Positions 3,227 to 30,948 of a DNA stretch of 64,000 bases are shown here, piece by piece. This DNA is from Flavobacteriales bacterium (GTDB lineage Bacteria > Bacteroidota > Bacteroidia > JACJYZ01), in NCBI GenBank assembly GCA_020435415.1, contig JAGQZQ010000004.1, forward strand, positions 6,234 to 70,233, in the 5' to 3' direction. The notes under the pieces were generated by a model. The model saw nothing but the letters and a program-made list of their open reading frames with translations, did no database searches and was not told the origin of the DNA. The number at the start of each line of letters is the position of its first letter. The stretch's first letter is position 1. The position numbers and the translations under genes are program-made.

Positions 3227-3229
3227 TAT

Positions 3230-4093: not shown

Positions 4094-4103
4094 GGAGCGC
4101 CCT

Positions 4104-5689: not shown

Positions 5690-6188
5690 CAGGCTGCAGT
5701 CCTTTACCCTGATCGAACTGGTGGTGGTGATGATCATCACCGGCATTGTGGTTGCCACGGCGGCTACGGCACTTCGCATTACAGGCGAACGATTAGCCCA
5801 TTTGAAAGACAGCCGGGAGAAATGGCTGGAGGTATACCGGCTTGAAGGTGCCGTGCAGGGAGATGCGGACCGGTCCCTGGAGGTGCTGAGCGAGGTGGAT
5901 GGAGTCAGGTTAAAGCGAATGGTTGGTCCTGATATCGTATATCATATTCTAGCCAACGGGGTGGTTCGTGAAACCGGTCAGGTTACGGATACCTTTTATG
6001 TTGATATTTCAGAAAGAGAATCATACTATAATGGCAACACCATAACAACGAATGTATCGCCTATTGATGAGTGGAAATGGGAAGCGCAAATCGGCGAGAC
6101 GCCGGTATCATTTCGTTTTTATAAGATATATGCGGCAGACGAGAAAATGCGGCACGAAGCGATTCTGAATCACACACCCGGCAGATAA
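5676..6188 (+). CDS. Type IV pilin / T2SS pseudopilin
   Basis: It has a classic prepilin N-terminal motif, RLQS|FTLIELVVVMIITGIV, with Phe at +1 and Glu at +5; Ser at -1 is atypical. Confidence 0.65.
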   Translation: MRTADRLQSFTLIELVVVMIITGIVVATAATALRITGERLAHLKDSREKWLEVYRLEGAVQGDADRSLEVLSEVDGVRLKRMVGPDIVYHILANGVVRETGQVTDTFYVDISERESYYNGNTITTNVSPIDEWKWEAQIGETPVSFRFYKIYAADEKMRHEAILNHTPGR

Positions 6189-6197
6189 GCATGATCC

Positions 6198-7355
6198 ATG
6201 GCCATTGACCTGAAACAATACAAGGCATCAACTGTTAAGTCTGATAAGCGCACAACCGGAACAGCCGGATCGAAAGGCTTTATGGATTTCCTTAATAGGG
6301 ACATACAGCTCTTTGGAAGCGCGTTACCGGATAAGGATAAGGAAGCGTTTTATCATGAACTCGAGATTCTGATGGGTGCGGGTGTGGACATCAAATCGTG
6401 TTTGGATCATATTGAAAAAGAACAGAAGAAGAAAAAGGATCAGGTGCTGTTTGCCGATATCCGTGGTCGTGTGTTGAACGGGGAGACCCTTTCCGAAGCG
6501 ATCCGGAAGACAGGGAAGTTTTCACCCTATGAATATTACAGCTTGCAAATCGGTGAGGAATCAGGGAAGTTGCTGGAAGTGTTCCGCGAACTGGCGGGAT
6601 ATTTCAATGCAAGGATTCGGCAACGCAGACAGGTGATCAACGCTTTGTCATATCCCGCCATTGTCATGACGGTCGCCTTCGGTGCCATCTATTTTATGAT
6701 GCAGTTTATGGTACCCATGTTTGCGGATGTCTTTAAACGGTTCGGCGGTGATCTTCCACCCATAACCAAAATGATCGTTGACCTTTCCGCTTTTGTCCGT
6801 GCGTGGGGTGGCTGGCTGATGGTCGGCCTCGTGGGTTTGCTTATTGCAGGTTATTCACAACGAAAGAAGGATGGTTTTCGGAAAGTGCTATCGATGGTGG
6901 TGCTGCGTTTTCCTGTGGCGGGTCTGTTGGTTAAGAAAATATATGCGGCCAGGTTTTGCAGATCCATGGCCTTGCTGATGAGTGCCAATGTTCCGATGCT
7001 TCAGGCATTGGAGTTGGTGCGCAACATGATCGGTTATTATCCTATGGAAAAGAGCCTGGATCAAATCGGGAAGGAAGTGATGGAGGGAGGAACATTGCAT
7101 GAAGGCCTGGGTGCACATGACATTTTCCCTTCCAGATTAACAGCACTTGTTAAAGTAGCCGAGGAAGTGAATCAACTGGATGTCATATTCGAACAACTCG
7201 CGAAACAGTATGGGGAAGAGGTGGAATACCAGACGGGACTGCTTGGTAGTTTTGTGGAACCGCTGATGATCATCTTCCTCGGCCTTGTTGTGGGTGTTAT
7301 TCTCATTGCCATGTACCTGCCATTGTTCCAGCTCAGCACCGGCGTGATGCAATAG
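6198..7355 (+). CDS. gspF: Type II secretion system / type IV pilus platform protein GspF/PilC family
   Basis: 385 aa. It shows two GspF-type repeats and three TM segments (LSYPAIVMTVAFGAIYFMMQFMVPMFADVF, and a C-terminal EPLMIIFLGLVVGVILIAMYLPLFQL). This is a typical T2SS_F architecture. Confidence 0.75.
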   Translation: MAIDLKQYKASTVKSDKRTTGTAGSKGFMDFLNRDIQLFGSALPDKDKEAFYHELEILMGAGVDIKSCLDHIEKEQKKKKDQVLFADIRGRVLNGETLSEAIRKTGKFSPYEYYSLQIGEESGKLLEVFRELAGYFNARIRQRRQVINALSYPAIVMTVAFGAIYFMMQFMVPMFADVFKRFGGDLPPITKMIVDLSAFVRAWGGWLMVGLVGLLIAGYSQRKKDGFRKVLSMVVLRFPVAGLLVKKIYAARFCRSMALLMSANVPMLQALELVRNMIGYYPMEKSLDQIGKEVMEGGTLHEGLGAHDIFPSRLTALVKVAEEVNQLDVIFEQLAKQYGEEVEYQTGLLGSFVEPLMIIFLGLVVGVILIAMYLPLFQLSTGVMQ

Positions 7356-7369
7356 CAAATATTTCTGAA

Positions 7370-7400
7370 GGCCGGAGGGTCCTCCTGCTTTTCTCTTTAT
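7370..7400 (+). terminator. Weak hairpin plus T-rich tract downstream of gspF
   Basis: ggaggGTCcctcc stem followed by tgcttttctcttt. Confidence 0.25.
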
Positions 7401-7824
7401 CCATGCTATGTTCGGAAGAGATTCTCTGCTGGATTACCATGTGACATGTCTTTTTGGGAAACGCATTCCATAAGCAGGAATAATTAAGTATTAATACGTA
7501 TTTATTTTTTATTTGAGTATTGGTGTTAAATGGTACATGATAAAATGTTAATATTTTAATACGGCTTATGATTATTATAAATAAACGATGTTTCAGGTGG
7601 TGACTTCAATAATTCAGATGGCGAATTGATACAAAAGTTGGTTAGAATAAATTGAAATCATATAATTGCACCCTGAGAATTTGGTGCGTCATTTTATTCG
7701 CGGAACTGACATTGATGGCAGTCAGTGTGTGGTCAGAAAATCCATCTTGCTCTACTTTAGATAATATTACAATGCCGCATGGTTATTTGGGCGGGCAGGA
7801 ATCTATCACAGTATTTATAAATTC

Positions 7825-9849
7825 ATGAAGATGATCCGTAAAAAACAAAGGCTGACCGTAGTTGCTGTATTTATTGCACTGGTTGGTTGGCAGATGGTAC
7901 ACGCCCAGGATACGGTGGGTGTTGTGATTAGTATAACCGATACAACCCCTGACCCGTCTGCAATTCTGGATGTGATGTCAACAACAAAAGGAATGCTTAT
8001 TCCTCGTATGACAACCACGGAACGCGGCGCAGTTTCATCTCCTGCTGATGGTTTGATGGTTTATGATACGGATGAAAGTGCGGTGTATTTTTATAACGGT
8101 ACAACAACTGAATGGGCAAAGGTAGCAGGTGAATTATGGGAGCAGAGTGGAGGTGATATTTACTATACGGGAGGTAATTTCGGTTTGGGTACGGAGACCC
8201 CTGCCTATCGTTTAAGTATTGCGGGCAATTCGTCAATTGCGGACCGCACGATTGCTGTTAATGATACACCAATGGTCTATCTGGCAGCTCAGGGCAGTTC
8301 TCAATTGATAGGTTCGATCGCGTTTGGAAACGGTTTGAGAAGTCTGACTTCCGGATCAGGTAAGTATAACACGAGCGTTGGTATAGGTGCATTGTTTTCT
8401 ACCACCAGCGGTACCCAGAATACAGCTCTGGGTGCAAACAGCCTCCGCTCCAATACGGGCGGAAGTCAGAATACCGGTATCGGATACCAGACGCTTTACA
8501 CAAACACGACAGGTACCAATAACACCGGAATCGGCTATAATGCATTACAATCAAATACTACCGGAAGTTACAATACCGCGGTAGGTATCACTTCGTTAAA
8601 CTCAAATACCACAGGTAACGGCAATACCAGTTTGGGTTCTTTTTCATTGCGGTACAATACCACCGGAACATCTAATACGGGAATCGGTTCCAGTGCATTG
8701 TATAATAATACTACCGGAATTAATAATACCGCTGTGGGCGAAGAGGCCCTGAAAGCCAATACCACCGGCGGACAAAATACAGCGATCGGTGTGGATGCAT
8801 TGATCAACAATACCACCGGTTCCTATAACGTAGCGATCGGATCCTTCACGCTTAATGGAAATACTACTGGTAGTTTGAATGTGGGTATCGGTCCGCAGGC
8901 ATTGTATACCAATAGCACAGGAGTATCTAACTTTGCTAACGGAACCCAGGCATTGTATAGTAACACCACCGGTAACTATAATACGGCGGAAGGTTCATAT
9001 GTGTTATACACCAATACCACCGGCAGCAACAACACCGGCAACGGTTATCAATCGCTCAAAAACAGTACCACCGCGGGAAGTAATACAGGCATCGGTTTTC
9101 AGGCCGGACACGATATCACCACCGGTTCATACAATACCATCCTGGGGAATTTCCCCAGCACCTCTTCCAGCATCACCACCGGCTCGAACAATATCCTGAT
9201 CGGGAATGATGTACGCAACGGCCTTTCGGTGACCAGTTCGAACCAGCTGAACATCGGCAATCTGATCTATGGTACTGGTCTGGGTTCGGCCGGCAGTGTG
9301 CATAACATTCCGAGGGTGGGTATCAATACAGCGACACCGGACACGACTTTTTCCGTGAATGGAAGAGCCTCCATGCAGGGAGGCGGATCCTGGCTCACCT
9401 TCTCAGACAGAAGAGTGAAAAAAGATACAGCCTCATTCACAGACGGCATTGAAACGATCCGCCAGGTGCATCCCATGAAATACAAATACCGGGGCATCTA
9501 TGCGGACACCACCACGGAGTTTGTAGGTGTGATTGCTCAGGATATGCAGTCTGTGGCACCATACACGGTCAAATCACACAAGATCGAAGTGCGTGGCCGG
9601 GATGCCAACATGTTCCAGGAAAAGACCTACATCCGTACGGACAACATATATGTTCGTACGGATACATTGGTGGGGCCCAATGATAGCATCATTTTGCAAC
9701 CGGTACACAGACAGGAGCAGGTATATGAGGTGGATGCATTAAGTTATGATCAGAGTGCATTATTCTATGTTATGATCAATGCACTGAAACAGTTGGATGC
9801 GGAGAATGCAGAGTTGAGAAGCAGGATAGAAGCATTGGAGAACGAATAA
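7825..9849 (+). CDS. Tail-fibre-like surface protein with 17-aa NTxxG repeats and a C-terminal peptidase S74 (endosialidase-chaperone) intramolecular chaperone domain
   Basis: It has a signal peptide and about 16 tandem copies of NTxxGxxALxxNTTGxx. The C-terminus (SDRRVKKD...VHPMKYKYRG...FVGVIAQDMQSVAPYTV... coiled coil ENAELRSRIEALENE) matches the S74 autoproteolytic chaperone domain. Confidence 0.7.
   Translation: MKMIRKKQRLTVVAVFIALVGWQMVHAQDTVGVVISITDTTPDPSAILDVMSTTKGMLIPRMTTTERGAVSSPADGLMVYDTDESAVYFYNGTTTEWAKVAGELWEQSGGDIYYTGGNFGLGTETPAYRLSIAGNSSIADRTIAVNDTPMVYLAAQGSSQLIGSIAFGNGLRSLTSGSGKYNTSVGIGALFSTTSGTQNTALGANSLRSNTGGSQNTGIGYQTLYTNTTGTNNTGIGYNALQSNTTGSYNTAVGITSLNSNTTGNGNTSLGSFSLRYNTTGTSNTGIGSSALYNNTTGINNTAVGEEALKANTTGGQNTAIGVDALINNTTGSYNVAIGSFTLNGNTTGSLNVGIGPQALYTNSTGVSNFANGTQALYSNTTGNYNTAEGSYVLYTNTTGSNNTGNGYQSLKNSTTAGSNTGIGFQAGHDITTGSYNTILGNFPSTSSSITTGSNNILIGNDVRNGLSVTSSNQLNIGNLIYGTGLGSAGSVHNIPRVGINTATPDTTFSVNGRASMQGGGSWLTFSDRRVKKDTASFTDGIETIRQVHPMKYKYRGIYADTTTEFVGVIAQDMQSVAPYTVKSHKIEVRGRDANMFQEKTYIRTDNIYVRTDTLVGPNDSIILQPVHRQEQVYEVDALSYDQSALFYVMINALKQLDAENAELRSRIEALENE
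8371..9190 (+). repeat. Intragenic tandem repeat with a 51-nt (17-codon) period, about 16 copies
   Basis: The repeat units NTGIGYQTLYTNTTGTN / NTGIGYNALQSNTTGSY etc. are seen directly in the translation of 7825..9849. Confidence 0.8.
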
Positions 9850-9882
9850 GATCGCAAAACTATCCATCGCCTATCGCCACAG

Positions 9883-12800
9883 ATGATGTTCCTTACCACC
9901 ATATACCAACGTTTCCTTATTTGTCTGGGATGTTTCTTCCTTCTGACAGGACCCGTGCAGGCACAGCTCAGTAATAATGGGGCGCGCATCAAATTGTATC
10001 ATGGCGTAAAGCTTCAGGTACATGGTGATGTTGTGAACAAGAAAAGCGGAGAGTTTGATCTCCGTGGTACACTTCGCCTGAAAGGAGATTGGACAAATAA
10101 TGCAGATAATCCTGGCTTTAGCGATCAAAGCGGAAATGGTGCCGTAGAATTTTTTGGTGGATACAAGCAGTATGTTACTGGAGTTACCCCGACGGAGTTT
10201 TATAAACTTCGTCTGGGAAAATCCGATAATGCCGTGGAAGCAGATACAACAATCACTATCATGGATAGTTTGTTGCTTTCCGGTGGTGTGCTGATCACTT
10301 CTGCTTCCAATTACCTGATCATGAATGATGACGCCGGTGCCACCGGAGGTAATGGCAGCAGTTTCGTGCAGGGGCCGATGAAAAAGATCGGCGACGAAGC
10401 ATTTACTTTTCCACTGGGAAGAAGAGATAGCTATCAACCGTTGGTCATCACCGCACCCGCTTCCGCCACCGATGCATACGTGGCAGAATATTTTGATTAT
10501 GAACAGGATCTCGGTTTTGAAAAGGATGATTCATTAAACTACCTAAGTACTTGTGAATTCTGGAATCTGAACCGGACATCCGGAAGTTCGGATGTGACCA
10601 TCACCCTCGGATGGAACACGAATAGTTGTGACATTTCCAAATCCTCTGATGTCAGAATCGCCTATTGGCAAGGAGATTCCATATGGGCCAACCTGGGCAT
10701 CGGATCAACTTCGGGAGATGCTGACAACGGTACGATCCAGTCACCCGCTGCAGTGACCGCGTTTGGCTCTTTCACTCTCGCCAGTGTGATCCCCACCACC
10801 AATCTGCAAAGTGCTTTTTGTGATATGGCGGGCCTCACACTCTCGGATACACTCCTTGCTGATACGGTCAGCGGTGTGACCAGTTATGAGTTCTACATTT
10901 TTGATAGCACAGGTTTTGCCAGGTATGTTGTTCGCGATGATGTGTCATTGCCGCTTTCACTGGTCAGCGGATTGAAGTACGGAAGTACATACCAGGTACA
11001 GGTCCGGGTTCTGGTAGGAGAAAAGCTGGGTGCATATGGTGATACCTGTGATATTATTTTTGATGAATTCGCTCCTACTTCATTAACGTCAACATGGTGT
11101 GATGTGGATGATGTCAGCATTGCCGATACCCTCCAGGCCCAGGTTGTGCCAGGCGCGAAAGGCTATGAGTTTCTTGTTGAAGATACAGCTACCGCAGCTA
11201 CTTACAGCAAAACCTATGTGCGTAACAGCAGGGATGGTAAGTTGCCCTTGATTGCTATGGACAGCCTGGAGTATGGTATCACCTATCGTGTGGCGGTTCG
11301 TTATTTTGTGGGTGAGGATACCATTACATGGGGAGATACCTGTCACATTGAACTCATTGATCATCCCCTCACCAAACTGCAAAGTGAATGGTGCCCCGCA
11401 AATGATCTGACACTGGCAGACACCGTGGAAGCAGAGATTGTGCCCGGTGCACTCCACTACCAGTTTTATTTTGAAGATACCGCCACCGGCGCCACATTTA
11501 CTGCCGAGTATACCAATGATACATACCGCCTCGCACTTGACGATGTGGATGGTCTGGAATATGGTGTCACATACCTGGTCACGGCAAAAAGTATTGTAGG
11601 GTTGGACACGTCCGCATACGGCGATACCTGCTACATCGGACTCGATATACATCCCATTACCAAACTTCAGGTGCAGTACTGTGACAGCTCCGGTATCAGT
11701 ATTGGTGATACGCTGCTGGCAGATATCGTAGCTGGCGCAGAGAAATACCAGTTCCATCTGTTCAAAGGTGGGGAGATCGATACCGTATACACCCGGGGCA
11801 ATACCGATGGAAAATTCCCGCTGTCCGATATTCATGCACTTTTATTCGATTCAACTTACAGCATTGCTGTCAGGACCATTGTCGGCACGGATACTTCTGC
11901 ATATGGAGATACATGTATGATAACCCTTCTTGATAGTGTGCCGGTAACAATACTTGACGAGAACGCATGCTATAATTACCAACTGGATTTTGACGATGAA
12001 GTTTATGCCGAACTGGTGCCTGGCGCCTCGGTTTATCAATTCAAAGTGGAGAATGCGGATTCAGCATATAGCGAGACCTATACAAGGGAAAATGCCGACG
12101 GTCTCCTCGACCTCAATGAACTGACGGATCTTGAATACAACGTGCTTTACGATGTCATTGTCCGGGCCGCCATCAATAACGATACCGCACAGTGGGGGGA
12201 TACCTGCCGGATCAAACTTCTGCCCAGGACCCAGCTCATCACGGATGACTGCGATAAGCTCATGAATCTCCAGGATAGCCTGGTGGCGGATACTGTTCCA
12301 CTTGGTACGGGGTATGAGTTTACTTTTATAGATGATACCACCAATTTCCGCTTGTCATATGTCATAGATGCAACACACGGGATTCTGGTGCTGGATAGTG
12401 TTGAAGGCCTCAGGTACAATAAGACCTACCAGGTGCTGGTGCGTACCATCGTGGAAAGTGACACAGCCAACTACGGTGACACCTGCTCCCTGATGCTGAT
12501 CGAGCAACCACTGACCAAATTGATCACGGAAGACTGCGATGTGACAGACTTTGTGATGAGCGATACCCTTGAGGCAGACCCCGTGGTCGGTGCCACTTCT
12601 TATGTATTCTTTTTTGAGGATACCAACTCGGTCGACACCACCGGCTATATCGGAAAAGTGGTGGTGGACAGCACGGATGCGGTGTTGCCCTTGCTGCAGG
12701 CCACGGGACTGGAATACGGTGCCACCTATTATGTGCGTGTCGCACCCATCGTAGGTAGTTATGAAGGCGAGTATGGCGATACCTGTCTGGTTACTTTTAT

Positions 12801-15800
12801 CGAACACCCGCTGACAAATATCAACGAGACATGGTGCGACGTGGAGGACATTACCCTGGCGGATACCCTGCAAGCCGAGGAAGTGGATGGTGCACATACC
12901 TATCAGTTCTTTGTCTGGGATACCGCTGCTGCAGGTACCTACACGGAAACTTTTTACCGGTACAGCTATGACGGACTTCTTCCTTTGCACGATCTCGACA
13001 GTGCCCGTTATGGAATAACCTATGGCGTGAAAGTGGCTACCGTGGTGGGAGCAGATACCTCCGCTTATGGCGATACCTGTTATTTCGGCCTGACCGATCT
13101 TCCCGTTACACAACTTACCGATTACTGGTGCGACTCCATCGGCGTATCCATGGCCGATACCCTGGAGGCGGAAGCCATCGGTGGCGCAAAGACTTACATT
13201 TTCTTCTTCGAGGATACGGTGACGGCCTCCGAATTTATGGTCTCCGATACCATTTTTGATGATACCCCCCGTATACCTTTGTTGGATGTACCCGGGCTGA
13301 AATATGCCACCACCTATGCCGTGAGCGTAAAGGCCGTGATCGGGGGAGATACAACCGCCTTCGGGGATACCTGTCTCGTAAGTATGTTCGATAGCATTCC
13401 GGTGACCAAGCTTCATGACAGTTTCTGTGATTCACTCAATATCTCGCGTGATGCCATCGTGTATTCGGATCTTGTTGTGGGTGCCGATCAATACCTGTTC
13501 ATGCTGGTGGATACCGCAGCGGATGATACGCTTTCTTATATAAGACCCTATGGAGATGGTAAACTGATCCTGGCCGATGTGGAAGGCCTTGCCAATCCTG
13601 TAACCTATGCTGTCAGGGTACGCGTGGTGATGGATGAAGATACGGCCCAGTTCGGTGGAACATGCTACCTTCGAACGGATACGGCCACGCAGTTGGCAGC
13701 ATTGTACTGCGATACCATGAATGCAGGTATTACAGATACCCTTTATGCAGACCTTCTTACCGGTGCCACTGCTTACGGATTTATCCTTGCGGATACCGCG
13801 TCCAGCTTCACCACCACCTGGTGGCGTGACGATACCGATGGCATGCTGCCGCTGGGTGAAGTGGATAGCCTTGAATACGGGACCGTGTACGAGGTTCGGG
13901 TGAGAGCCGTCCTGGGTGGTGATACCACATACTATGGCAGTACCTGTACAATATCTATCGAATCGCATCCCGTTACGAAATTATCAACCACATGGTGCGA
14001 TGCCACGGATGTCGAGATCGGAGATACGCTGCAGGTGGATACCATAGCAAAAGCAAGCGCCTACCTGTTTGCCATCGAGGATACGGTGACCGGGCAGGAG
14101 TTCAAAGCATTCCATATGCGTGATTCTTCCGATGGCAAGCTACCGCTTGTGGATGTGGAGGGATTGACTTACGGTCGTACCTACCTGGTCAGTGTGCAGT
14201 CGATTGTTGGTGAAGAAATCAGTGCCTGGGGCGACACCTGTGAGATAACGCTGATCGAACATCCCACAACCCAACTGAATATTTTTTGGTGCGATAGCAA
14301 TGATATTAGTCTGTCTGATACGTTGGCGGCTGATATTGTACCGGGCGCTTCGATCTATGAGTTCGTGATCGAGGATACGGTGACCGGTGCTACTTACACC
14401 CAAACGCATTTCCGCAACGATGCCGACGGATTGCTCATTCTGGCGGATGTGGATAGCATGACCTATGGCCATACGTACCGTGTGTTTATCCGGACATATG
14501 CCGGTGACGATACCTCCGCATACGGCGATACCTGCCATATCGGTATCATCGACCATCCGACAACACAATTGCAGGAGCAATGGTGCGATAGTTCAGGTGT
14601 TGCGCTGAATGATACGGTAACCGCTGATACGGTCGGAGCAGCCTGGCGCTATGAGTTCGCCATCATGGATTCCGCCACGGCCTTTGCCACCACCTATATG
14701 AATGATGACGGCAATCCATTGCTGTTCCTCGGAGAGGTGGACAGTCTCTTTTATAAAAAGACCTACCTCGTGGCGGTGCGCACTTATGTGGCCGGCGATA
14801 CTTCCGCCTGGGGTGATACATGTAAAATACGGACACCGGATGAGGTGCCGTCCACCACACTTACATCCACCGATTGCAGTAAACGCGACCTTTCACTGGA
14901 TAATGTGCTCTCGGTGGATGAGATCGCCGGGGCCACCCGCTACCTCTTCGAGCTCGAGGACTCGGCCACGGCGGAATTGTTCACTTACATCGACAGTGTC
15001 GGAGGCGGCCTCGTACTGGGTGACATCGAAGACCTCGGTTATGGCAACGCTTATGATGTGTATGTGAAGGTGGTCTCAGGTGCGGATACGTCCGATTGGG
15101 GTGCCGCATGCACCATCGCCATGCTGGCCGATATTCCGGTCACTTCGCTGGATGCAGAGGGTTGCTACGCCGTGAACCTGGATACCACCGATGCGGTCTA
15201 TGCCGAGCCGGTGACCGGTGCCACGGAATACGATTTTCATATTTACAATACAGACCTGGCCTTTGATGAACTGTATACGGATACCACGGGTGCAGGTATC
15301 CTGCCGCTGGATAGCGTTTCAGGCTGGTCTTACGGTTATTCTTACAATGTGGAAGTGCGTTCCCTTGTTGCCGGTGAGCTGTCTTCATACGGCGGAACAT
15401 GCCCCATTACGCTTCTGTCGGATACCACATGGCATTTGTTTACCTGGGCCTCTTCCGCCAACGTGAGTATTGTGGATGGTGACATTACAAAGTCGGGTAC
15501 GGATGGCGACTGGACGGATGCATACGCAATTTCTGAAGACTCCATCGACAGCGGTGGCGACGGCTATGCGGAATTCTCCATGACCACCGAAACGGATACA
15601 TATATTTTCGGTCTTTCACAATCCGGTGCACCTTACGATAGCCTGGATCATGCCATCCTGATCGACAGTGGTGAGGTGTTTGTGATGGAGGCCGGTATAA
15701 ACCTGGGCCTGATGGCCACAGCGGAAGCCGGCGATGTGCTGAGCATCGAACGCATAGGCAGTGAAGTGGTATACAGAAACAACGGAGAGGCATTTTACAA

Positions 15801-18800
15801 TTCTTATCCTAACACCGACCTGGTGCTTCACGTGCAAATTCATCTGTTCAATGATGGCGCTGAAGTGGGGGCGATCGGTGGGTATGAAACACCGGGTCCG
15901 GCATTCCCTCCATGCAACCTGGATATGAACTGGTCTTCTTCGCGGTTCTTCAACGGCTATGGAACCGGCCAGGGCAATGTGATCGCAGAATCGAAAAGTA
16001 TCAGCGATTATATGGGAAGACCCATTCAGGGGCTGGTTAAGAATATGACTGAGAATGTGGTACTGGCTGCCGAACCGATGTATGATGACCTGGGGCGTCG
16101 AGTGGGACAAACACTGCCGGCTCCGATCAACAGCAGCCATCTGTGCTACAAGCAAAAGTTCGTGGTAAACCCGGACGGAGGTAAGTACAATACGAATGAC
16201 TTCGACAATTCCGATGATCATATTGCCCAGGCGGGCACTTATGGTACGGTGAACAACCCGAGGGCCGTTCGGGGCAGTGCTTTTGATATTGGTACACTGG
16301 GGTGGTACTACAGCGATAACAACACCCTGGAGTCCCACGTGGATGTGAGCAGCTATCCGTATTCCCGGGTGGAATATGATGACAACAACCCGGGCCAGGT
16401 CAAACGGGTCTCGGCAGTAGGCGATGAGTTGCGAATGGGTAAGGGACGTGAAGGTGTGGCCTTCTCCATGCCCGCTTCCGGTGAATTGCACTATGTCTTC
16501 GGTTATGCCAACGGGTGGACCGTAGATTACTTCGATACCCACGGCACGCCGGTGGCCGGGAATTTCCAGGCAACCTACAAGGTGATGAAGCATATCTCCG
16601 TGGACCCGAACGGCATCGAAACGGTGAGCTTCACCGATTATGACGGCAAAATGGTGGCTGCCTGTCGCAGCGGCAGTGTGGATGGCGCCAACGTACGGAC
16701 ACAGAAAGTACAGGAGTCGTTCCAGAAAGGAAAGCGTTGCATCGACATTCACCTGCCGGAAGGTTGCGAGTCGTCGCTGGAGCTGACTTCCGGCCAGGAT
16801 CTTATCTACAACATCCTTGACCTGGAAACCGATGAGCTCGTGAAGGTCAACGGATCCGTGAACTTCAGCGGCGGAAAACCATACCTCGACCCCGGCTTCT
16901 ACCGCATCATTCATGTAACGGATTACAACGACTACAGCGGTGCGCTTCCGGTGACCTACAACCTGAACTACCACGACTTCACCGCTTACTATTATGACCG
17001 GGCCGGTCGTCTGTCCTCCATCATTCCGCCTATTGGCATCGATGATACTTATGACCCTAAATCCGTTGTGGTAAGCAAGCGGAAGAAAAGCGAAAGTTTT
17101 AATGCCGGCAGTGGTATGTGGGGAGTCAGCAACAAACAGGCTGCCGGTTTTACACTGGATCTTGCCACTGCCGTTGATCCGTCCGGAAGTTCGTTTGCCA
17201 ACCTGGTCGTGACCCTGTCCAAATCCAACGTGGTCATATCCGATCCGCAAAACCCCGGACTCACTTCCGGCAGGTTAGCCTTCGGCACGACCACGGTGAA
17301 TACAGTCCCTTCGGATGTGACCGGTTTCGGGGTTATAGATGAAGATGATCCGCTGGCCCAGGGACCTGATCCGGGATGTGATTGCGGTCCGGGTGCCTGG
17401 TGCTTCACCGGTAGTGAGGCGGCGGCCATCAGTGATGCGGAAAACAAATGTTCCCGCATGGGGGCATGGGGCAAAGAAGCCATTGCCATTGACCGTGGAA
17501 GTGGTGAGTGGTGCCTGGCCTGCGGTGCTGACAAACCCATACCGGAAGGGCCCAAGTATGAGATCGAGGTGGCGCTGTACTGCAATGATGCACAGGGTGC
17601 ACTTATCCGGGATGACCTCGTCTTTTACGCCTATCACCATGAAGGTAAAACACCCGAATGGACCTTCCGGAGTGATCCCAATAGCCTCGGTACCAACACC
17701 GCTGCCGTTGAATGGGCTGTCATCGATCAGGACCTGATGGAAACCACCACCCAGGTTTATGTAAAAGTGGTTTCTATGAAGGAGTTTGATTATACCATCG
17801 GTGGAAAACTTGAAACCTTCGACTACGATCTGCTGGACGGTATGAAACTGTCTCTGAATGCCTCGGTGCATAACATCCCCGGCCTGCCGCAACATGCCCA
17901 GGCCACGCATTTTGAGTACAATTCCCTGGGCCAGCAATTGTCTTCCGTGACACCCGATGAAGGGAAAACGGAATTCGTGTACCGGAGGGACGGACAGATC
18001 CGTTTCTCACAGGATGCCCGTCAGGCTTCTGAAGATAAGTTTACCTACTTCAGCTACGATCGTTTCGGCCGGTTGGTGGAGTCAGGTGAATATGAATCTC
18101 CTTCATCCGGTGCGGGTGTCTACTTCCAGAACCATCAGGGGGAACACAGTGCACCCGGAGGTTGCAGTCCGTGTACCGCCGCAACGGATGCCTCCGTGCT
18201 GGAAGTCCTTGACGGACTGAACGACAGCTACTGTTCCGAAGTGATCACCACAACTTTTGATGTGGCGGACGATGCCGGCATCGCATCTGTGAATACGGAA
18301 CTCGGAAGCACATACAGCCAACGCTACCTTCTGGGCAAGGTCTCCAAAACAGAAAAGGAAGGCCTGTCCACCACATGGTACAGCTATGATGAACAGGGCC
18401 GTGTGGAATGGACAGCCCAACAGGTGGAAGGCATGACAACTTCCGGTACCGGTCACAAATTGCTGACCACCAACTATACGTACAACCGCTCCGGAACGGT
18501 GAGCGAGGTGGAATACCAGCAGGAGAGCTCAGGTACGGACAACGAACGTTTCGTGCACCTCTATGAATACGATAAGGACAACCGCCTCAGCGAAGTGGCA
18601 TCCCGGCGCTATGACCAATATGGCGCCAGCCTGGGTGACCATGCGGAAGCGACCTATGCCTATTATGTGCACGGTCCGCTCAAACGCACCGAACTGGGCG
18701 GCGATGTCCAGGGCATCGACTATACCTACAACATCAACGGCTGGCTGAAAGCCATCAACCATCCTGATCTGGATGCCGGAAAAGACCCCGGGCGTGATGG

Positions 18801-21063
18801 CTACGGAGGTGAACACGCAGCTTTCGGAAAGGATGCTTTTGGTATGGCGCTGGATTATTACGACAACGACTACCAACGCAGCTACACCGATCTGGTCAGC
18901 GGCCTGAGCTCCGACGTCAGCTATTACAACGGCAACATCAAATCGCAACGCTGGCAGAATGCCTACGCCAGCGCTGCCCCGCCGACGGGTGAGCAGTGGA
19001 TGTACTCCTACAACTATGACCACCGCTACTGGATTACCGGCGCGGATTTCGGTACCTTTGATCAGGCGACCGAAATGAAAACAGGCACGGACAACTACAA
19101 GGTGTGGAACATCACCTACGACAAGAACGGCAACCTGCAAACCCTGAACCGCAACGGCTACGGAGGCACCCAAAGCATGGACGAGTTCACCTACCACTAC
19201 AATACCTTTGACCTGCATGGTCAGACCCGCACGGGCAACCGCTTGCAGAAGGTGGACGATCCGGTGACGGCAGGCAACTATTCCATGGACTATGATGACG
19301 AACATAGCGGTACAGACTATGTTTATAATGATATAGGCCAGCTGGCCGAAGACCTGGAAGAAGGACTTTACTATACCTACAACCTTGCCGGACAGGTGAC
19401 AGGTGTTTACAATGATGCCTCTCACACCTCCCCGAAGGTGACCTATGCATATGATGAAACGGGCTTCCGTATTCTGAAGACAGATCACAGCGGTCCGAAA
19501 TACACCTGGTATGCCCGTGATGCAAGCGGCAACACCCTGGCCATTTATGAACGTGACGGAGGTGATCTGGAACAAACGGAGATCTCGCTCTATGGTTCTG
19601 GCCGGTTGGGTATTTATGATGTAGGGCTTGAGGTGTATGTGTATGAACTGACGGACCACCTGGGCAATGTGCGGGTGACGGTGAGCGGCGAGAAACAGGA
19701 AGACGAGGAATTCTATTTTGAAGATTTTGAAGGGATTGATGAAGAAGCAGGCATTTGTGTGGATGGAACCTGGGCATCAGGTTCCGGTGTGACGGCGGAT
19801 CTGGTGGATGGCCCGGATGGTAAGCGCATGGATCTGGTCATCACTCCTGTGTTTGAAGGTATTCATTTCTCGATATCAACGGAAGTGGGTGAGGAGTATA
19901 TCATCCGCCTGGATGCGGACATGGTTTCCGGTGTCATTGGCATAGAACCACGCAAATGCGGCGCCTCCACGGATATCTTAGGTTACCATGCGATCACGGA
20001 TGGCGTGAATGAGATGACGTTTACCGCTCTGACCACGACCACACGCATCAAGTTCGTGAACTCATCGGCCAATCCATCGGAGGTCTATCTTGACAACCTG
20101 CTTATCACCGGCCCCGGCCTGGGTACCCAGGGTTACACGGCGGAGATCTTAAGCATTGCGGACTACTATCCCTTTGGCATGGTGATGCCGGGTGCCGAAC
20201 ACAGCTATGATAACGGTTACCGCTACACCTACCAGGGCCAGGAAGGGGAAGCGGAAAGTGGGGTGGAGATGGGAGCCTTCCAATACCGCGGTTTTGATAG
20301 CCGGTTGGGAAGATGGATGAACCCGGATCAGGCAAAGCAGTTTCATAGCCCGTATGTGGGGATGGGGAATGTGCCGATTGCGGGAGTTGACGGGGATGGA
20401 AGATATATTCATATAATTGGTGGGAATGAAGAACTACTATTGAATGCAATAAATTTATATAGTCAACTCCCAGGAGCTAATATAGGCAAATTAAGGGAGT
20501 ATATGACGAGTCCTACAAAGCATATCTATATTAAATTTGGTGTAATAGGAACTGCTGGAAGTACACTAAATTTACCAGTTGGAACAGAGGAACACTTTCG
20601 TACTGTTGGTGGATTTAATACAGAGATACGCAGTGATCAAGAGTATCACCTTATCAGAGTTAGTAGTAATTTTTTGGAGGAGAAAGATGCAAAGTATCAA
20701 GCTCTCCTTGTAACTTTTGTTTTGGCACATGAACTAGATGCCCATGTCTTCTCCAATTTCTGGGAAGATAGAAACAGAACGGTGGCTGAGACAGAGACGC
20801 TTGGGCATAATGCATATGGTAATCATGGAATAGCAAGATCACCTGATGGATATTTGTTAAAGGAAACCCGTGATTTGGCTACACTAACTGATGCTGGCTC
20901 GAAGGCTTACAATCAGCTTACACAATTGTTAACCTGGAATGCATCACCTGAACCTATTAGTAAAGTGATCTCAAAGCAGGTCCATTATGTCTTGGGGAAA
21001 ACGATATTGTTAACCCAGCCGAGAAGAATTGTTAAAGTTCAGAATTTACCTAAATATAGATAA
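9883..21063 (+). CDS. Giant secreted RHS/YD-repeat polymorphic toxin (3726 aa). Architecture: signal peptide; N-terminal domain; 16 tandem Cys-bracketed ~95-aa domains; YD/RHS repeat shell; RHS core; variable low-GC C-terminal toxin domain.
   Basis: YD repeats are present (YDRAGRLSSI, YDRFGRLVESGEY, YSYDEQGRVEW, YEYDKDNRLSEV, YTYNINGWLKAINHPD). An RHS core-like end reads DYYPFGMVMPG ... YRGFDSRLGRWMNPDQAKQFHSPYVGMGNVPIAGVDGDGRY. The final ~215 aa are encoded by AT-rich DNA. Confidence 0.85.
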   Translation: MMFLTTIYQRFLICLGCFFLLTGPVQAQLSNNGARIKLYHGVKLQVHGDVVNKKSGEFDLRGTLRLKGDWTNNADNPGFSDQSGNGAVEFFGGYKQYVTGVTPTEFYKLRLGKSDNAVEADTTITIMDSLLLSGGVLITSASNYLIMNDDAGATGGNGSSFVQGPMKKIGDEAFTFPLGRRDSYQPLVITAPASATDAYVAEYFDYEQDLGFEKDDSLNYLSTCEFWNLNRTSGSSDVTITLGWNTNSCDISKSSDVRIAYWQGDSIWANLGIGSTSGDADNGTIQSPAAVTAFGSFTLASVIPTTNLQSAFCDMAGLTLSDTLLADTVSGVTSYEFYIFDSTGFARYVVRDDVSLPLSLVSGLKYGSTYQVQVRVLVGEKLGAYGDTCDIIFDEFAPTSLTSTWCDVDDVSIADTLQAQVVPGAKGYEFLVEDTATAATYSKTYVRNSRDGKLPLIAMDSLEYGITYRVAVRYFVGEDTITWGDTCHIELIDHPLTKLQSEWCPANDLTLADTVEAEIVPGALHYQFYFEDTATGATFTAEYTNDTYRLALDDVDGLEYGVTYLVTAKSIVGLDTSAYGDTCYIGLDIHPITKLQVQYCDSSGISIGDTLLADIVAGAEKYQFHLFKGGEIDTVYTRGNTDGKFPLSDIHALLFDSTYSIAVRTIVGTDTSAYGDTCMITLLDSVPVTILDENACYNYQLDFDDEVYAELVPGASVYQFKVENADSAYSETYTRENADGLLDLNELTDLEYNVLYDVIVRAAINNDTAQWGDTCRIKLLPRTQLITDDCDKLMNLQDSLVADTVPLGTGYEFTFIDDTTNFRLSYVIDATHGILVLDSVEGLRYNKTYQVLVRTIVESDTANYGDTCSLMLIEQPLTKLITEDCDVTDFVMSDTLEADPVVGATSYVFFFEDTNSVDTTGYIGKVVVDSTDAVLPLLQATGLEYGATYYVRVAPIVGSYEGEYGDTCLVTFIEHPLTNINETWCDVEDITLADTLQAEEVDGAHTYQFFVWDTAAAGTYTETFYRYSYDGLLPLHDLDSARYGITYGVKVATVVGADTSAYGDTCYFGLTDLPVTQLTDYWCDSIGVSMADTLEAEAIGGAKTYIFFFEDTVTASEFMVSDTIFDDTPRIPLLDVPGLKYATTYAVSVKAVIGGDTTAFGDTCLVSMFDSIPVTKLHDSFCDSLNISRDAIVYSDLVVGADQYLFMLVDTAADDTLSYIRPYGDGKLILADVEGLANPVTYAVRVRVVMDEDTAQFGGTCYLRTDTATQLAALYCDTMNAGITDTLYADLLTGATAYGFILADTASSFTTTWWRDDTDGMLPLGEVDSLEYGTVYEVRVRAVLGGDTTYYGSTCTISIESHPVTKLSTTWCDATDVEIGDTLQVDTIAKASAYLFAIEDTVTGQEFKAFHMRDSSDGKLPLVDVEGLTYGRTYLVSVQSIVGEEISAWGDTCEITLIEHPTTQLNIFWCDSNDISLSDTLAADIVPGASIYEFVIEDTVTGATYTQTHFRNDADGLLILADVDSMTYGHTYRVFIRTYAGDDTSAYGDTCHIGIIDHPTTQLQEQWCDSSGVALNDTVTADTVGAAWRYEFAIMDSATAFATTYMNDDGNPLLFLGEVDSLFYKKTYLVAVRTYVAGDTSAWGDTCKIRTPDEVPSTTLTSTDCSKRDLSLDNVLSVDEIAGATRYLFELEDSATAELFTYIDSVGGGLVLGDIEDLGYGNAYDVYVKVVSGADTSDWGAACTIAMLADIPVTSLDAEGCYAVNLDTTDAVYAEPVTGATEYDFHIYNTDLAFDELYTDTTGAGILPLDSVSGWSYGYSYNVEVRSLVAGELSSYGGTCPITLLSDTTWHLFTWASSANVSIVDGDITKSGTDGDWTDAYAISEDSIDSGGDGYAEFSMTTETDTYIFGLSQSGAPYDSLDHAILIDSGEVFVMEAGINLGLMATAEAGDVLSIERIGSEVVYRNNGEAFYNSYPNTDLVLHVQIHLFNDGAEVGAIGGYETPGPAFPPCNLDMNWSSSRFFNGYGTGQGNVIAESKSISDYMGRPIQGLVKNMTENVVLAAEPMYDDLGRRVGQTLPAPINSSHLCYKQKFVVNPDGGKYNTNDFDNSDDHIAQAGTYGTVNNPRAVRGSAFDIGTLGWYYSDNNTLESHVDVSSYPYSRVEYDDNNPGQVKRVSAVGDELRMGKGREGVAFSMPASGELHYVFGYANGWTVDYFDTHGTPVAGNFQATYKVMKHISVDPNGIETVSFTDYDGKMVAACRSGSVDGANVRTQKVQESFQKGKRCIDIHLPEGCESSLELTSGQDLIYNILDLETDELVKVNGSVNFSGGKPYLDPGFYRIIHVTDYNDYSGALPVTYNLNYHDFTAYYYDRAGRLSSIIPPIGIDDTYDPKSVVVSKRKKSESFNAGSGMWGVSNKQAAGFTLDLATAVDPSGSSFANLVVTLSKSNVVISDPQNPGLTSGRLAFGTTTVNTVPSDVTGFGVIDEDDPLAQGPDPGCDCGPGAWCFTGSEAAAISDAENKCSRMGAWGKEAIAIDRGSGEWCLACGADKPIPEGPKYEIEVALYCNDAQGALIRDDLVFYAYHHEGKTPEWTFRSDPNSLGTNTAAVEWAVIDQDLMETTTQVYVKVVSMKEFDYTIGGKLETFDYDLLDGMKLSLNASVHNIPGLPQHAQATHFEYNSLGQQLSSVTPDEGKTEFVYRRDGQIRFSQDARQASEDKFTYFSYDRFGRLVESGEYESPSSGAGVYFQNHQGEHSAPGGCSPCTAATDASVLEVLDGLNDSYCSEVITTTFDVADDAGIASVNTELGSTYSQRYLLGKVSKTEKEGLSTTWYSYDEQGRVEWTAQQVEGMTTSGTGHKLLTTNYTYNRSGTVSEVEYQQESSGTDNERFVHLYEYDKDNRLSEVASRRYDQYGASLGDHAEATYAYYVHGPLKRTELGGDVQGIDYTYNINGWLKAINHPDLDAGKDPGRDGYGGEHAAFGKDAFGMALDYYDNDYQRSYTDLVSGLSSDVSYYNGNIKSQRWQNAYASAAPPTGEQWMYSYNYDHRYWITGADFGTFDQATEMKTGTDNYKVWNITYDKNGNLQTLNRNGYGGTQSMDEFTYHYNTFDLHGQTRTGNRLQKVDDPVTAGNYSMDYDDEHSGTDYVYNDIGQLAEDLEEGLYYTYNLAGQVTGVYNDASHTSPKVTYAYDETGFRILKTDHSGPKYTWYARDASGNTLAIYERDGGDLEQTEISLYGSGRLGIYDVGLEVYVYELTDHLGNVRVTVSGEKQEDEEFYFEDFEGIDEEAGICVDGTWASGSGVTADLVDGPDGKRMDLVITPVFEGIHFSISTEVGEEYIIRLDADMVSGVIGIEPRKCGASTDILGYHAITDGVNEMTFTALTTTTRIKFVNSSANPSEVYLDNLLITGPGLGTQGYTAEILSIADYYPFGMVMPGAEHSYDNGYRYTYQGQEGEAESGVEMGAFQYRGFDSRLGRWMNPDQAKQFHSPYVGMGNVPIAGVDGDGRYIHIIGGNEELLLNAINLYSQLPGANIGKLREYMTSPTKHIYIKFGVIGTAGSTLNLPVGTEEHFRTVGGFNTEIRSDQEYHLIRVSSNFLEEKDAKYQALLVTFVLAHELDAHVFSNFWEDRNRTVAETETLGHNAYGNHGIARSPDGYLLKETRDLATLTDAGSKAYNQLTQLLTWNASPEPISKVISKQVHYVLGKTILLTQPRRIVKVQNLPKYR
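10798..15420 (+). repeat. 16 diverged tandem coding repeats of about 285 nt, one domain each, with the pattern WCD...ADTL.A..V.GA..Y.F...DT......Y.....DG.LPL..VD.LEYG.TY.V.VR...G.DTSAYGDTC.I
   Basis: Read directly from the translation of 9883..21063. Every unit begins with a Cys (WCD / YCD / FCD) and ends with GDTC. Confidence 0.8.
20407..21063 (+). other. Variable C-terminal toxin (CT) module of the RHS protein, unassigned family
   Basis: It begins immediately after the RHS-core motif VDGDGRY. GC content drops abruptly at about 20400 and stays low through the next gene. It contains LAHELDAHVF, which is HExxxH and not the canonical HExxH. Confidence 0.6.
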
Positions 21064-21113: not shown

Positions 21114-21833
21114 ATGATGCGATATCTTTTGCTTTACATTATAATGCTCGGGGTACCATCGGTAAATTCAAATAATATTCAAAGACCATTTCCGCAGATG
21201 CCGGAACAGCAAACTTGTCTTTGTTATGTTTTTGTTCCACGAGCTGGTAGTGAGGATTTACTGAAAATAACAGAAATGCCCCTGTATTTGTCTAAAGAAC
21301 CTATGTTGTTGGGAGGGGATGTTTGGTATCCATTCCGTTTTGGAAATACTATAGAATTTAGATATGCACTAGATACTTCAGCTGTTTTGAGTGACTACAT
21401 TGATAGCATAGGTACAACCTACTTTCTTCGTCTTAATAATAATGTCGTTGAGTTTAGAGATGCTATTGGTGTACCTCCTGGTTTTACTGTTAACAGCCCT
21501 TTGCGCTTATTTGATTTTAATAATCCTGAACAGAAAACCGAACTTTTAGCAGTACCCTATCTTCGATATCATTTGCTTGAAAAGAATAGCATTATTTATG
21601 ATTATGCTTTGAAGGATACTTTGCATTTATACGATCTTAAAGGGTTTGAACAAGTGTATAAAAATAAGACAAATCATAGTGATAGTTCGAGCAATCAATA
21701 TTTAATAGGTCAAACTGCTGCATCAGTGGCACCATTGTTCGAAAAATTAGTTGTGGGTGAGAGGTATGGGGTGTTATATTTTGAATACACTTTTGATGGG
21801 GCAGTATATAGGTGTCAAAGTGCGAATCGTTAA
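21114..21833 (+). CDS. Candidate cognate immunity protein for the RHS C-terminal toxin (hypothetical, has a signal peptide)
   Basis: 239 aa, beginning 50 nt downstream of the toxin gene on the same strand. It shares the same low GC as the CT module. The N-terminus MMRYLLLYIIMLGVPSVNS looks like a signal peptide. Confidence 0.5.
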   Translation: MMRYLLLYIIMLGVPSVNSNNIQRPFPQMPEQQTCLCYVFVPRAGSEDLLKITEMPLYLSKEPMLLGGDVWYPFRFGNTIEFRYALDTSAVLSDYIDSIGTTYFLRLNNNVVEFRDAIGVPPGFTVNSPLRLFDFNNPEQKTELLAVPYLRYHLLEKNSIIYDYALKDTLHLYDLKGFEQVYKNKTNHSDSSSNQYLIGQTAASVAPLFEKLVVGERYGVLYFEYTFDGAVYRCQSANR

Positions 21834-21965: not shown

Positions 21966-22421
21966 GTGCCCCGGTTTTTAACAATGAGCACTATTGAAGC
22001 AATGAATATAGGAAATAGCATACGTGTTTTTGTTCCGGTTTTTATGCTGACGGTATCCTTTGCATACGCCCAGAATGATACCCCGGCAACCATCCCTTCC
22101 ACGGTAGCAGATACCGCACAGGCGGCGCAGGACCTGCCTGTGCGTGATAAGAGCGGGATGAGTGCTGAGGACTACCGTATTAAAGCACAAAAACAAAGAA
22201 AGACCGCCAATACATGGCTGATCATGTCCAGCGCGTTGAGTGGGTCATATGCCGCTATTCCGGGGGATATGTCCATGCAGTCTGTTTCAGATGGACAGGA
22301 AACCGCAAGGGTATTGTTCGGCATCGCCGCTTTCGGTGTGGCCATGGCATCGCTCATTCATTTTATAAGCGCTTCAGACAATAACAAGAAAGCAGATAAA
22401 CGAACTCCTGAAAATCCCTGA
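21966..22421 (+). CDS. Small hypothetical secreted/membrane protein
   Basis: 151 aa. It has hydrophobic N-terminal (VFVPVFMLTVSFAYAQ) and C-terminal (VLFGIAAFGVAMASLIHFI) segments and normal GC. Confidence 0.4.
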   Translation: MPRFLTMSTIEAMNIGNSIRVFVPVFMLTVSFAYAQNDTPATIPSTVADTAQAAQDLPVRDKSGMSAEDYRIKAQKQRKTANTWLIMSSALSGSYAAIPGDMSMQSVSDGQETARVLFGIAAFGVAMASLIHFISASDNNKKADKRTPENP

Positions 22422-30806: not shown

Positions 30807-30948
30807 ATCATGTTTTTAGGATGACGACTAGATGATATCTGATATACAAGAATGACAGTCAAGTGATACCCATCATTCAAAGATATTTATTTATCTGCAT
30901 GTTTTTACTATGATTGCTATTTAAGGATTGGGACGCACGCATAACTAA

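Follow-up and report, generated by a model that had tools for sequence, protein, structure and literature searches.

A chromosomal tail-fibre-like protein with an S74 chaperone domain beside a giant RHS gene in a Flavobacteriales genome: a locus that looks like two joined modules

Proteins with an S74 intramolecular chaperone domain are known both from phages, as in the K1F/endoNF endosialidase and the L-shaped tail fibre of T5, and from eukaryotes, where the ICA domain of MYRF is of this kind. Members of the family trimerise and then cleave themselves at a serine residue. Rhs polymorphic toxins, in turn, include the Rhs effectors of type VI secretion systems (T6SS), WapA, the TcB-TcC pair of the Tc toxins and the teneurins. 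To our knowledge, it is not established how Rhs toxins with a Sec signal peptide are exported in the Bacteroidota, nor how they find their targets. Here, we have analysed a stretch of 64,000 nucleotides from a metagenome-assembled genome of a Flavobacteriales bacterium (GenBank assembly GCA_020435415.1, contig JAGQZQ010000004.1, positions 6,234 to 70,233 of the forward strand), which we call the window and in which all positions are counted. It contains a gene for a tail-fibre-like protein with a C-terminal S74 domain and, immediately downstream, a giant RHS gene. The S74 fibre and the RHS protein do not recur as a pair in related genomes. However, the N-terminal domain of the giant protein, termed giantN here, belongs to a family whose genes are found directly downstream of related fibre genes, and the RHS part has conserved partner genes of its own. 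From these comparisons, the window looks like two modules joined to each other, one made up of the fibre and giantN, the other of the RHS protein and its partners. The features at the junction of the two are the following:

7356-7824, no strand: spacer of 469 nt with a GC content of 0.35 and without an open reading frame (ORF) of at least 80 amino acids (aa); candidate promoter region
7825-9849, + strand: tail-fibre-like protein of 674 aa (ORF and family matches)
7825-7908, + strand: Sec signal peptide of the fibre, aa 1-28, MKMIRKKQRLTVVAVFIALVGWQMVHAQ (read from the sequence)
7909-8154, + strand: N-terminal domain of the fibre, aa ~29-110, with the motif KGMLIPRMT (conserved in two family alignments)
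8365-9180, + strand: stalk of the fibre, 16 repeats of 17 aa, aa 181-452 (self-identity at lag 17)
9301-9579, + strand: neck motif RVGINTATPDTTFSVNG and Peptidase_S74 domain (Pfam, PDB entry 7dc3, conservation)
9850-9882, no strand: gap of 33 nt between the fibre gene and the giant gene, without a hairpin (sequence, terminator scan, RNA folding)
9883-21063, + strand: giant RHS toxin of 3,726 aa, MCB0395300.1 (ORF, homologues, YD repeat)
9964-10782, + strand: giantN domain, aa 28-300 of the giant (recurs next to fibre genes elsewhere)

The fibre and its junction with the giant gene

The fibre is built from a signal peptide, a family-specific N-terminal domain, the stalk of 16 repeats of 17 aa, a neck and the S74 chaperone domain, which is followed by a coiled coil at the C-terminus. 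It resembles the S74 spikes and fibres of phages in three respects: the Peptidase_S74 domain (PF13884, aa 527-582) scores above the Pfam cut-off (E 6e-10, 39.7 bits against a cut-off of 22), it carries the Ser-x4-Lys dyad, and it lies C-terminal to a repetitive stalk. The stalk consists of 16 consecutive units of the form xNTxxGxxALxxNTTGx, and its self-identity is 0.46 at a lag of 17 as compared to about 0.1 at other lags. The dyad is intact: inspection of the codons places Ser527 at 9403-9405 and Lys532 at 9418-9420, within the motif SDRRVK. In an alignment of 20 sequences, Ser527 is invariant and Lys532 is conserved in at least 90%; both are invariant in an alignment of ten. The two residues align with the catalytic positions of the self-cleaving domain of MYRF in PDB entry 7dc3 (E 3e-4), the sole solved structure that is reached by sequence, and whose crystallised chain carries an alanine at the position of the MYRF serine. 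The sequence-only reading, which had described the 674-aa protein as a repeat stalk with a C-terminal S74 domain, is thus borne out. Unlike the phage spikes, the fibre is encoded on a chromosome, has a Sec signal peptide and a cellular N-terminal domain, contains an insertion of about 50 aa in its S74 domain as judged from the alignment with family members, and has no virion genes nearby.

The protein is a chromosomal and, by prediction, Sec-exported member of a very large family of phage-tail-fibre-like proteins of the Bacteroidota: at least 7,919 proteins belong to it at E <= 0.001 among the 8,000 candidates that were scored. The alignments show a signal peptide in other members of the family as well. 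PHROG tail-spike and virion-protein families match the stalk with E-values between 4e-52 and 2e-41, and PHROG tail-fibre families are likewise matched by the fibre. Some homologues bear the name of the YadA-family trimeric autotransporter adhesins in the JGI annotation, and repetitive motifs resembling heads and stalks are indeed common to both. Unlike these adhesins, the fibre gave Peptidase_S74 as its only match in the Pfam scan, without a C-terminal YadA-type membrane anchor; the S74 domain and the coiled coil are found there instead. Sorting domains of type IX secretion are carried by some fibre homologues, and neither Por_Secre_tail nor CHU_C was detected in the window's fibre or in the giant in the Pfam scan. 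A search for tandem repeats at the DNA level between 7800 and 16000 did not detect any, which argues that both protein repeat arrays of this region, the stalk and the repeats of the giant, are old and diverged rather than artefacts of the assembly. In the literature searched, there was no published account of this fibre family in the Bacteroidota, which is no proof of absence. It should be mentioned that the start of the gene differs between annotations: the mechanical ORF begins at 7825 (MKM...), whereas the NCBI start is the third residue, M3, at 7831. The resulting 672-aa product, MCB0395299.1, annotated as 'tail fiber domain-containing protein', which is also what NCBI calls the family, is the only one on record.

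The stop codon of the fibre gene ends at 9849, and the giant gene begins with an ATG at 9883 on the same strand. The 33-nt distance and the same orientation had been noted in the sequence-only reading, as had the lack of a terminator between the two genes, and both observations stand: no terminator-like site was detected in 9850-9882, a weak statement for a gap of only 33 nt, and the predicted folding of the RNA from 9820 to 9920 is no better than that of shuffled sequences (z = +0.40). The fibre gene is the first of seven genes that form a same-strand block of 21 kb (7825-28742), and its co-transcription with the giant gene is plausible. The spacer upstream of the block contains overlapping AT-rich palindromes at 7479-7513. 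A scan for sigma-70 promoters yielded matches at the background level only, including those in the spacer, and the terminator scan did not rise above background either. Occurrences of the Bacteroidetes -7 motif TAnnTTTG do not exceed expectation (32 found in the window, 41 expected), and the motif is absent from the + strand of both the spacer and the 33-nt gap; both promoter scans are uninformative for this organism.

A link between fibres and the giantN domain

Two sets of loci were used to study the conservation of the arrangement. On the side of the fibre, a scan with one genome per species gave more than 593 relatives, from which 80 loci were kept and complemented by two from protein look-ups (82 loci); the genomes of this sample were chosen through a motif in the N-terminal domain of the fibre. 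On the side of the RHS protein, 80 loci came from a scan of metagenomes with the start of the shell as the anchor, and six from protein look-ups were added (86 loci). Many of the metagenome contigs are short, and genes were called by a simple longest-ORF rule. Some of the loci, referred to by L numbers, are duplicates or closely related (L083/84, L087/88, L153/154, L096-98 and two Niastella loci) and are not phylogenetically independent. The 80 best viral contigs (L175-L254) served as the viral comparison.

None of the 82 fibre loci has an RHS/YD protein within 10 kb of the fibre relative: the RHS shell of the window has no match there, and none of the neighbours of the fibre genes contains more than one YD-like motif. 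From the other side, searches with nine fibre queries (tblastn) did not match any of the 86 RHS loci, and hidden Markov models (HMMs) for the N-terminal domain, the stalk and the S74 domain of the fibre did not hit a single ORF in them. The same three models recognised 82, 82 and 72 of the 82 fibre loci, respectively, as a positive control. The sequence-only reading had regarded the S74 fibre and the RHS toxin as a functional unit and had proposed that genes for such fibres would occur immediately upstream of rhs genes across the Bacteroidota. With 0/82 and 0/86, there is no such co-occurrence in the related genomes, and a conserved neighbourhood of the two genes was not found. As far as a functional unit of fibre and toxin is concerned, the idea survives in part: the pair of S74 fibre and RHS protein has to be given up, but there are two looser conserved links, a giantN gene downstream of the fibre in 13 of the 82 loci and genes for other fibre-like proteins in 14 of 33 RHS loci (see below). 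Overall, the earlier interpretation is partly supported.

The link via giantN became visible when aa 1-300 of the giant were used as the query: in two fibre loci, L075 (E 1e-6) and L046 (E 3e-6), the match (tblastn) was the gene right after the fibre. An iterated HMM extended this to 13 of the 82 fibre loci. In 12 of them, the fibre gene, or the last one in a tandem row of two or three, has the giantN gene as its immediate downstream neighbour in the same orientation, and a single gene is inserted in the remaining one. Thus, all 13 giantN genes occupy position +1 or +2 after a run of fibre genes, and no giantN match is found among the other approximately 760 ORFs (Fisher p 7e-11). Moreover, giantN is present in 13/82 fibre loci versus 1/86 RHS loci (p 4e-4). 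The distance between the fibre gene and the giantN gene is 2-110 nt in 11 of the 12 adjacent cases and 302 nt in L049, comparable to the 33-nt gap of the window. Of the families into which 47 operon-like downstream neighbours of fibres fall, giantN is the largest and the commonest one on the same strand.

The loci with a fibre-giantN pair span Niastella, Flavisolibacter, Parafilimonas, Saprospiraceae and Lentimicrobiaceae. The giantN domain of the window and those of the other loci fall into two subgroups that are clearly related to each other (hhalign probability 98.6%, E 8e-16 over 259 columns), and the window's domain alone is recognised by the HMM of the other subgroup with an E-value of 3e-12. 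The partner proteins in the fibre loci are 367-728 aa long. Since 10 of the 13 end in a sorting domain of type IX secretion, these partners are surface proteins. The giantN domain itself has no relative in Pfam or PDB; a PDB search with the alignment matched only the C-terminal sorting domain of the partner proteins. A single-sequence AlphaFold model of giantN was unusable, with a pLDDT of 30.

The RHS gene, its partners and the fibre slot

The second module comprises the remainder of the giant gene, the genes downstream of it and a cluster at the left end of the window:

18-7355, + strand: cluster of nine genes resembling type II secretion/type IV pilus systems (Pfam; homologues near RHS modules)
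5676-6188, + strand: prepilin-type protein (Pfam N_methyl, E 2e-5)
6198-7355, + strand: platform protein T2SSF (Pfam T2SSF, E 1.5e-47)
10783-15582, + strand: about 16 repeats of ~97 aa in the giant, each with the cysteine motif [YWF]G[DGSA][TA]C (motif spacing 93-100 aa)
15973-20112, + strand: RHS/YD shell of the giant, aa 2031-3410, with a DUF6443-like start (domain and homologue comparison)
20158-20403, + strand: end of the RHS core, aa 3426-3507, ADYYPFG...RLGRWMNPD...VDGDGR (conserved in 67/86 related loci)
20404-21060, + strand: variable C-terminal domain of the giant, aa 3508-3726, presumed toxin (no conservation in relatives, low GC content)
21114-21833, + strand: g12, 239 aa, with a signal peptide and a GC content of 0.36; candidate immunity protein
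21984-22421, + strand: g13, small membrane-type protein of 145 aa (ORF)
22428-27494, + strand: g14, 1,688 aa, partner of the RHS family (in 37/38 long RHS loci)
27507-28037, + strand: OmpH/Skp-like periplasmic chaperone (Pfam OmpH, E 3.6e-25; in 35/38 long RHS loci)
28071-28742, + strand: g16, predicted lipoprotein of ~200 aa with an LVSC lipobox (in 36/38 long RHS loci)

The assignment of the giant as an RHS toxin, already made in the sequence-only reading, holds because its homologues reach an E-value of 6e-231. These are 64 proteins that were found with its C-terminal half (1,696 aa). Many of them are named 'RHS repeat-associated protein' and contain RHS_repeat, YD-shell or DUF6443 domains; about 1,240 aa of the giant align with proteins of this name at 34-37% identity. 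In addition, the NCBIfam YD_repeat model TIGR01643 matches with 23.4 bits at a cut-off of 15.8. Pfam gave sub-threshold matches to fn3 and DUF6443 only, and RHS_repeat itself was not matched. The NCBIfam RHS-core model does not match the giant either, and the motif at the end of its core differs from the usual DPxGL. The only sequences in PDB that match this core end are SGS1 and SGS4 (9on3, 8fjp), surface proteins of the salivary gland of mosquitoes.

With its YD shell, a conserved core end, a non-conserved C-terminus of low GC content and small genes downstream, the giant resembles the Rhs polymorphic toxins. Unlike these, it begins with a Sec signal peptide and has an N-terminal extension of 2,000 aa that consists of giantN and about 16 Ig-like repeats. 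The latter are probably a spacer of the Ig/fn3 type, as suggested by the weak fn3 match. In contrast to the Rhs effectors of T6SS, the giant is not accompanied by PAAR, VgrG or T6SS genes as far as Pfam scans of the larger ORFs of the window show, and is instead linked to g14, OmpH, g16 and the secretion/pilus-like genes.

Conservation of the giant in the related loci stops beyond aa ~3511, and its C-terminal ~220 aa have no match in Pfam, PDB or PADLOC. The GC content is about 0.40 in this presumed toxin domain and 0.36 in the gene for the following 239-aa protein, as compared to 0.54 in the RHS shell. A toxin domain and a downstream gene of such low GC content are typical of an exchanged toxin/immunity cassette, and g12 may be the immunity protein of the toxin, as judged from its position. 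Searches of Pfam, NCBIfam, PHROG and PADLOC did not assign g12 to a family, and PADLOC gave no match for the fibre, the toxin, g12, g13 and g16. We discarded the sequence HELDAH at aa 3616 of the giant as a possible zinc-protease motif, since it reads HExxxH where HExxH would be required and no family was matched.

The conserved partners of the RHS gene are g14, OmpH and g16, which the sequence-only reading had missed. The three genes occur together in 35 of the 38 metagenome RHS loci of at least 15 kb, and g16 always follows OmpH in the related loci. Upstream of the RHS gene, g14 is the direct neighbour in 39 loci and is separated from it by one or two small ORFs, equivalent in position to g13, in 16 related loci; together, these are 55 of the 69 loci in which the upstream gene is visible. 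Homologues of genes from the cluster at 18-7355 lie within 10 kb in 10 of the 38 long RHS loci, and it is the homologues of five of these genes that flank RHS modules elsewhere. The most complete example is L153, a same-strand array with a T2SSE ATPase (1e-120), a secretin (8e-35), a prepilin peptidase, two prepilin-type proteins and T2SSF, followed by OmpH, g16, g14 and the RHS gene; L172 is similar, its cluster likewise containing an ATPase, a secretin, a prepilin peptidase and pilins. The gene set of L153 is also that of the window, where it is arranged in another order, i. e. T2SSF, fibre, RHS, g12, g13, g14, OmpH and g16. It starts with the gene that follows the secretin gene in L153, and the genes for the ATPase and the secretin are thus expected just upstream of it. 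T2SSF and the prepilin-type protein of the window are as in type II secretion and type IV pilus systems, of which ATPase, secretin and prepilin peptidase are seen only in the syntenic loci L153 and L172. What distinguishes these loci from the known systems of this kind is the RHS toxin module that is embedded in or placed beside the cluster. The linkage of RHS, g14, OmpH, g16 and secretion genes points to a dedicated export pathway. No paper on a linkage of RHS genes with OmpH or with type II secretion/type IV pilus-like genes was found in the literature searched, and again this does not prove absence.

The large protein g14 is reminiscent of the tcB-tcC pair: it has a weakly SpvB/DUF6531-like start and a YD end, and its gene is mostly located immediately upstream of the RHS gene. 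At its start (22428-22760, aa ~45-110), DUF6531 matches eight of ten orthologues with sub-threshold E-values of 3e-4 to 9e-3, SpvB matches five of ten with E-values of 0.0035-0.33, below the cut-offs, and RHS_repeat/YD is found at the C-terminus (aa 1633-1661). There are differences from TcB-TcC, however: these matches are all sub-threshold, the shell of the downstream RHS protein is already of full length, a gene resembling TcA is lacking, and in the window RHS precedes g14 rather than following it. A PDB profile search with g14 found no TcB and nothing else of use. A TcB-like role of g14 may therefore be taken as a lead rather than as a result.

Fibre-like genes recur in this type of locus, and the S74 kind is found only in the window and in L001. 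P0018, which among full-length relatives is the one most similar to the window's fibre (49% identity), is encoded in L001 between T2SSF and OmpH-g16-g14. This slot of L001 contains two PTL-type fibres, one of them with an S74 domain. The other fibre-like proteins belong to a family that we call Y384 after its representative at L087:1768-2922. Genes of this type, one to four per locus, are present as the head of the block in 14 of the 33 RHS loci that have at least 1.5 kb of sequence upstream of OmpH. They are mostly located directly upstream of OmpH, often in two to four tandem copies, and directly upstream of the RHS gene in L087 and L158. The Y384 proteins have a signal peptide, repeated neck motifs of the form GNVGIGT, and a conserved C-terminal domain that lacks a Pfam model and bears the motif WPDYVF..HLPEVPSA..LLKKIEELTLY; the neck motif is common to them and the window's fibre. 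Only one of them matches YadA_head (E 3e-9), and one matches T4 gp36. The family comprises 38 further ORFs in 22 loci, such as L102, L115, L124, L126 and L134. We considered whether its C-terminal domain is a homologue of S74 and rejected this: the hhalign probability is 11%, and only the last helix is similar. The counterpart of the window's spacer at 7356-7824 is a small gene for a LytTR-domain protein in L001, an ORF that the window does not have; in L087, two LytTR genes precede the fibre-like gene.

The remainder of the window consists of housekeeping and polysaccharide genes, and tRNA and Rfam scans of the window gave no match. Two gene sets for the biosynthesis and export of polysaccharides (28811-37963 and 55608-63892) flank carB, tgt and mutS; they include genes for glycosyltransferases, a deacetylase, an FkbM methyltransferase, Poly_export, a GNVR/AAA_31 chain-length regulator and a sugar transferase.

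How the fibre might serve the giant protein

The two modules would be constituted as follows: (i) The first would consist of one or more fibre genes and a gene for a surface protein with a giantN domain, a combination that recurs in many Bacteroidota. (ii) The second would be made up of an RHS toxin with a Sec signal, g14, the OmpH/Skp-like chaperone and the g16 lipoprotein, usually beside secretion/pilus-like genes. In this genome, giantN is fused to the front of the toxin via the approximately 16 Ig-like repeats. The fibre would be exported by the Sec system and trimerise with the aid of its S74 domain, which would then cut itself off at Ser527. The mature fibre may associate with giantN at the tip of the giant and would in this way provide the toxin filament with a binding or anchoring function, and the RHS part would be handled by g14, OmpH, g16 and the secretion machine. 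It is from sequence comparisons that we infer co-transcription, trimerisation, cleavage, the contact between fibre and giantN, the export route and the toxin/immunity function alike. That the fibre works together with the giant, and does so via giantN rather than via the RHS shell, is plausible. The more specific proposal, an association with giantN by which the fibre serves the giant for binding or anchoring, is the one that we prefer, and we do so tentatively, as it falls a little short of being probable. The basis for this link between fibre and giant differs from a conserved pair of fibre and RHS gene and is weaker.

Several observations weigh against this proposal. As described above, the models for the three parts of the fibre do not find any ORF in the RHS loci, so that fibres of the S74 or PTL type are absent from all 86 of them. 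About 80% of the fibre loci have no giantN neighbour, and the window's fibre is no closer to the fibres that adjoin giantN genes than to the others (Mann-Whitney p 0.62). Moreover, giantN is found in 4,416 clusters of a library of 1.84 billion proteins, often as an internal domain, in multiple copies and in proteins as long as 5,484 aa. A domain that is so common and so often internal need not be a dedicated docking site. Finally, the RHS proteins of L086 and L172 have an internal giantN-like domain (aa ~650-860) without an adjoining fibre gene.

Part of this evidence would also be accounted for if the two genes were incidental neighbours, i. e. if a variable gene for a surface protein, an independent adhesin for instance, happened to be located upstream of the RHS gene and were possibly read through into it without any tie between the products. 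The fibre family is very large, and its genes are found next to a wide variety of others; the 47 operon-like neighbours downstream of them form many clusters, most fibre loci show no recurrent partner, and the C-terminal module of the fibre has its two nearest relatives, with 39% and 35% identity, beside unrelated genes. The absence of the fibre-RHS pair from both sets of loci and the failure of the window's fibre to cluster with the giantN-adjacent fibres fit this explanation as well. However, mere chance would leave unexplained why the giantN genes of the fibre loci are confined to the slot after the fibres, an arrangement that is repeated in the window, why the closest homologue of the fibre is encoded in L001, a locus of the same secretion/OmpH/g14 type, and why the two genes are only 33 nt apart without a terminator. 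We regard incidental neighbourhood as possible, if rather unlikely. The location of P0018 is compatible with still another idea, namely that the fibre is tied to the entire secretion/pilus-RHS system, not to the N-terminus of the giant, and is an interchangeable accessory subunit, a substrate or an appendage of the machine that occupies a 'fibre slot'. The Y384-type genes in 14 of the 33 well-covered RHS loci, with the position directly upstream of RHS in L087 and L158, the two PTL-type fibres in the slot of L001 where the window has a single S74 fibre, and the common neck motif would all agree with this. On the other hand, the C-terminal modules of the Y384 proteins and of the S74 fibres are not demonstrably homologous, more than half of the RHS loci lack a fibre-like gene, and L001 is the only one of the 82 S74-fibre loci that is of this type. 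In addition, Y384 genes are also present in 9 of the 82 fibre-anchored loci, and the fraction of 14/33 stands without a background frequency. A role of the fibre as an accessory of the entire machine is distinctly unlikely.

The phage comparison bears on a last alternative, that the fibre gene is what is left of a prophage or a contractile injection system and has no present role in the cell. The stalk matches PHROG tail-spike and virion families, as mentioned above, and relatives of the stalk and the S74 domain are encoded on all 80 best viral contigs. However, the N-terminal KGxLIPRM domain was found on only two of these contigs, and giantN and RHS on none. This distribution suggests that the N-terminal domain adapts the fibre to a cellular partner. 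The gene is intact and encodes a Sec signal peptide together with this cellular domain, the catalytic dyad is conserved, and Pfam scans of the larger ORFs of the 64-kb window found no genes for phage proteins, extracellular contractile injection systems, T6SS, PAAR, VgrG or integrases; a tRNA is also lacking. Since the cellular N-terminal domain is rare in viruses and phage genes are absent from the window, the fibre is a cellular derivative of phage hardware, and we consider a prophage or injection-system remnant highly improbable.

Returning to the association of the fibre with giantN, it is tempting to speculate about a more comprehensive scheme: the window and its relatives might represent an undescribed toxin-delivery system of the Bacteroidota, in which a secretion/pilus machine, a Skp-like chaperone, a lipoprotein and a TcB-like protein of ~1,700 aa export and arm a Sec-signal RHS toxin. 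Tail-fibre proteins derived from phages, with S74 in the window and of the Y384 type elsewhere, would be exchangeable targeting or anchoring subunits, and the fibre would dock on giantN. Taken in its entirety, this scheme is speculative and would have to be called doubtful.

If the two genes are incidental neighbours, the adjacency of fibre and RHS gene is ordinary. The main interest of the locus lies in the link between fibres and giantN at the level of domains and in the conserved module of RHS, g14, OmpH, g16 and secretion genes. If the fibre docks on the N-terminal domain of the toxin, receptor-binding hardware of phages would have been taken over for aiming or anchoring a polymorphic toxin, and the pair of fibre and giantN genes, which is common in the Chitinophagales and Saprospiraceae, would be an adaptor system.

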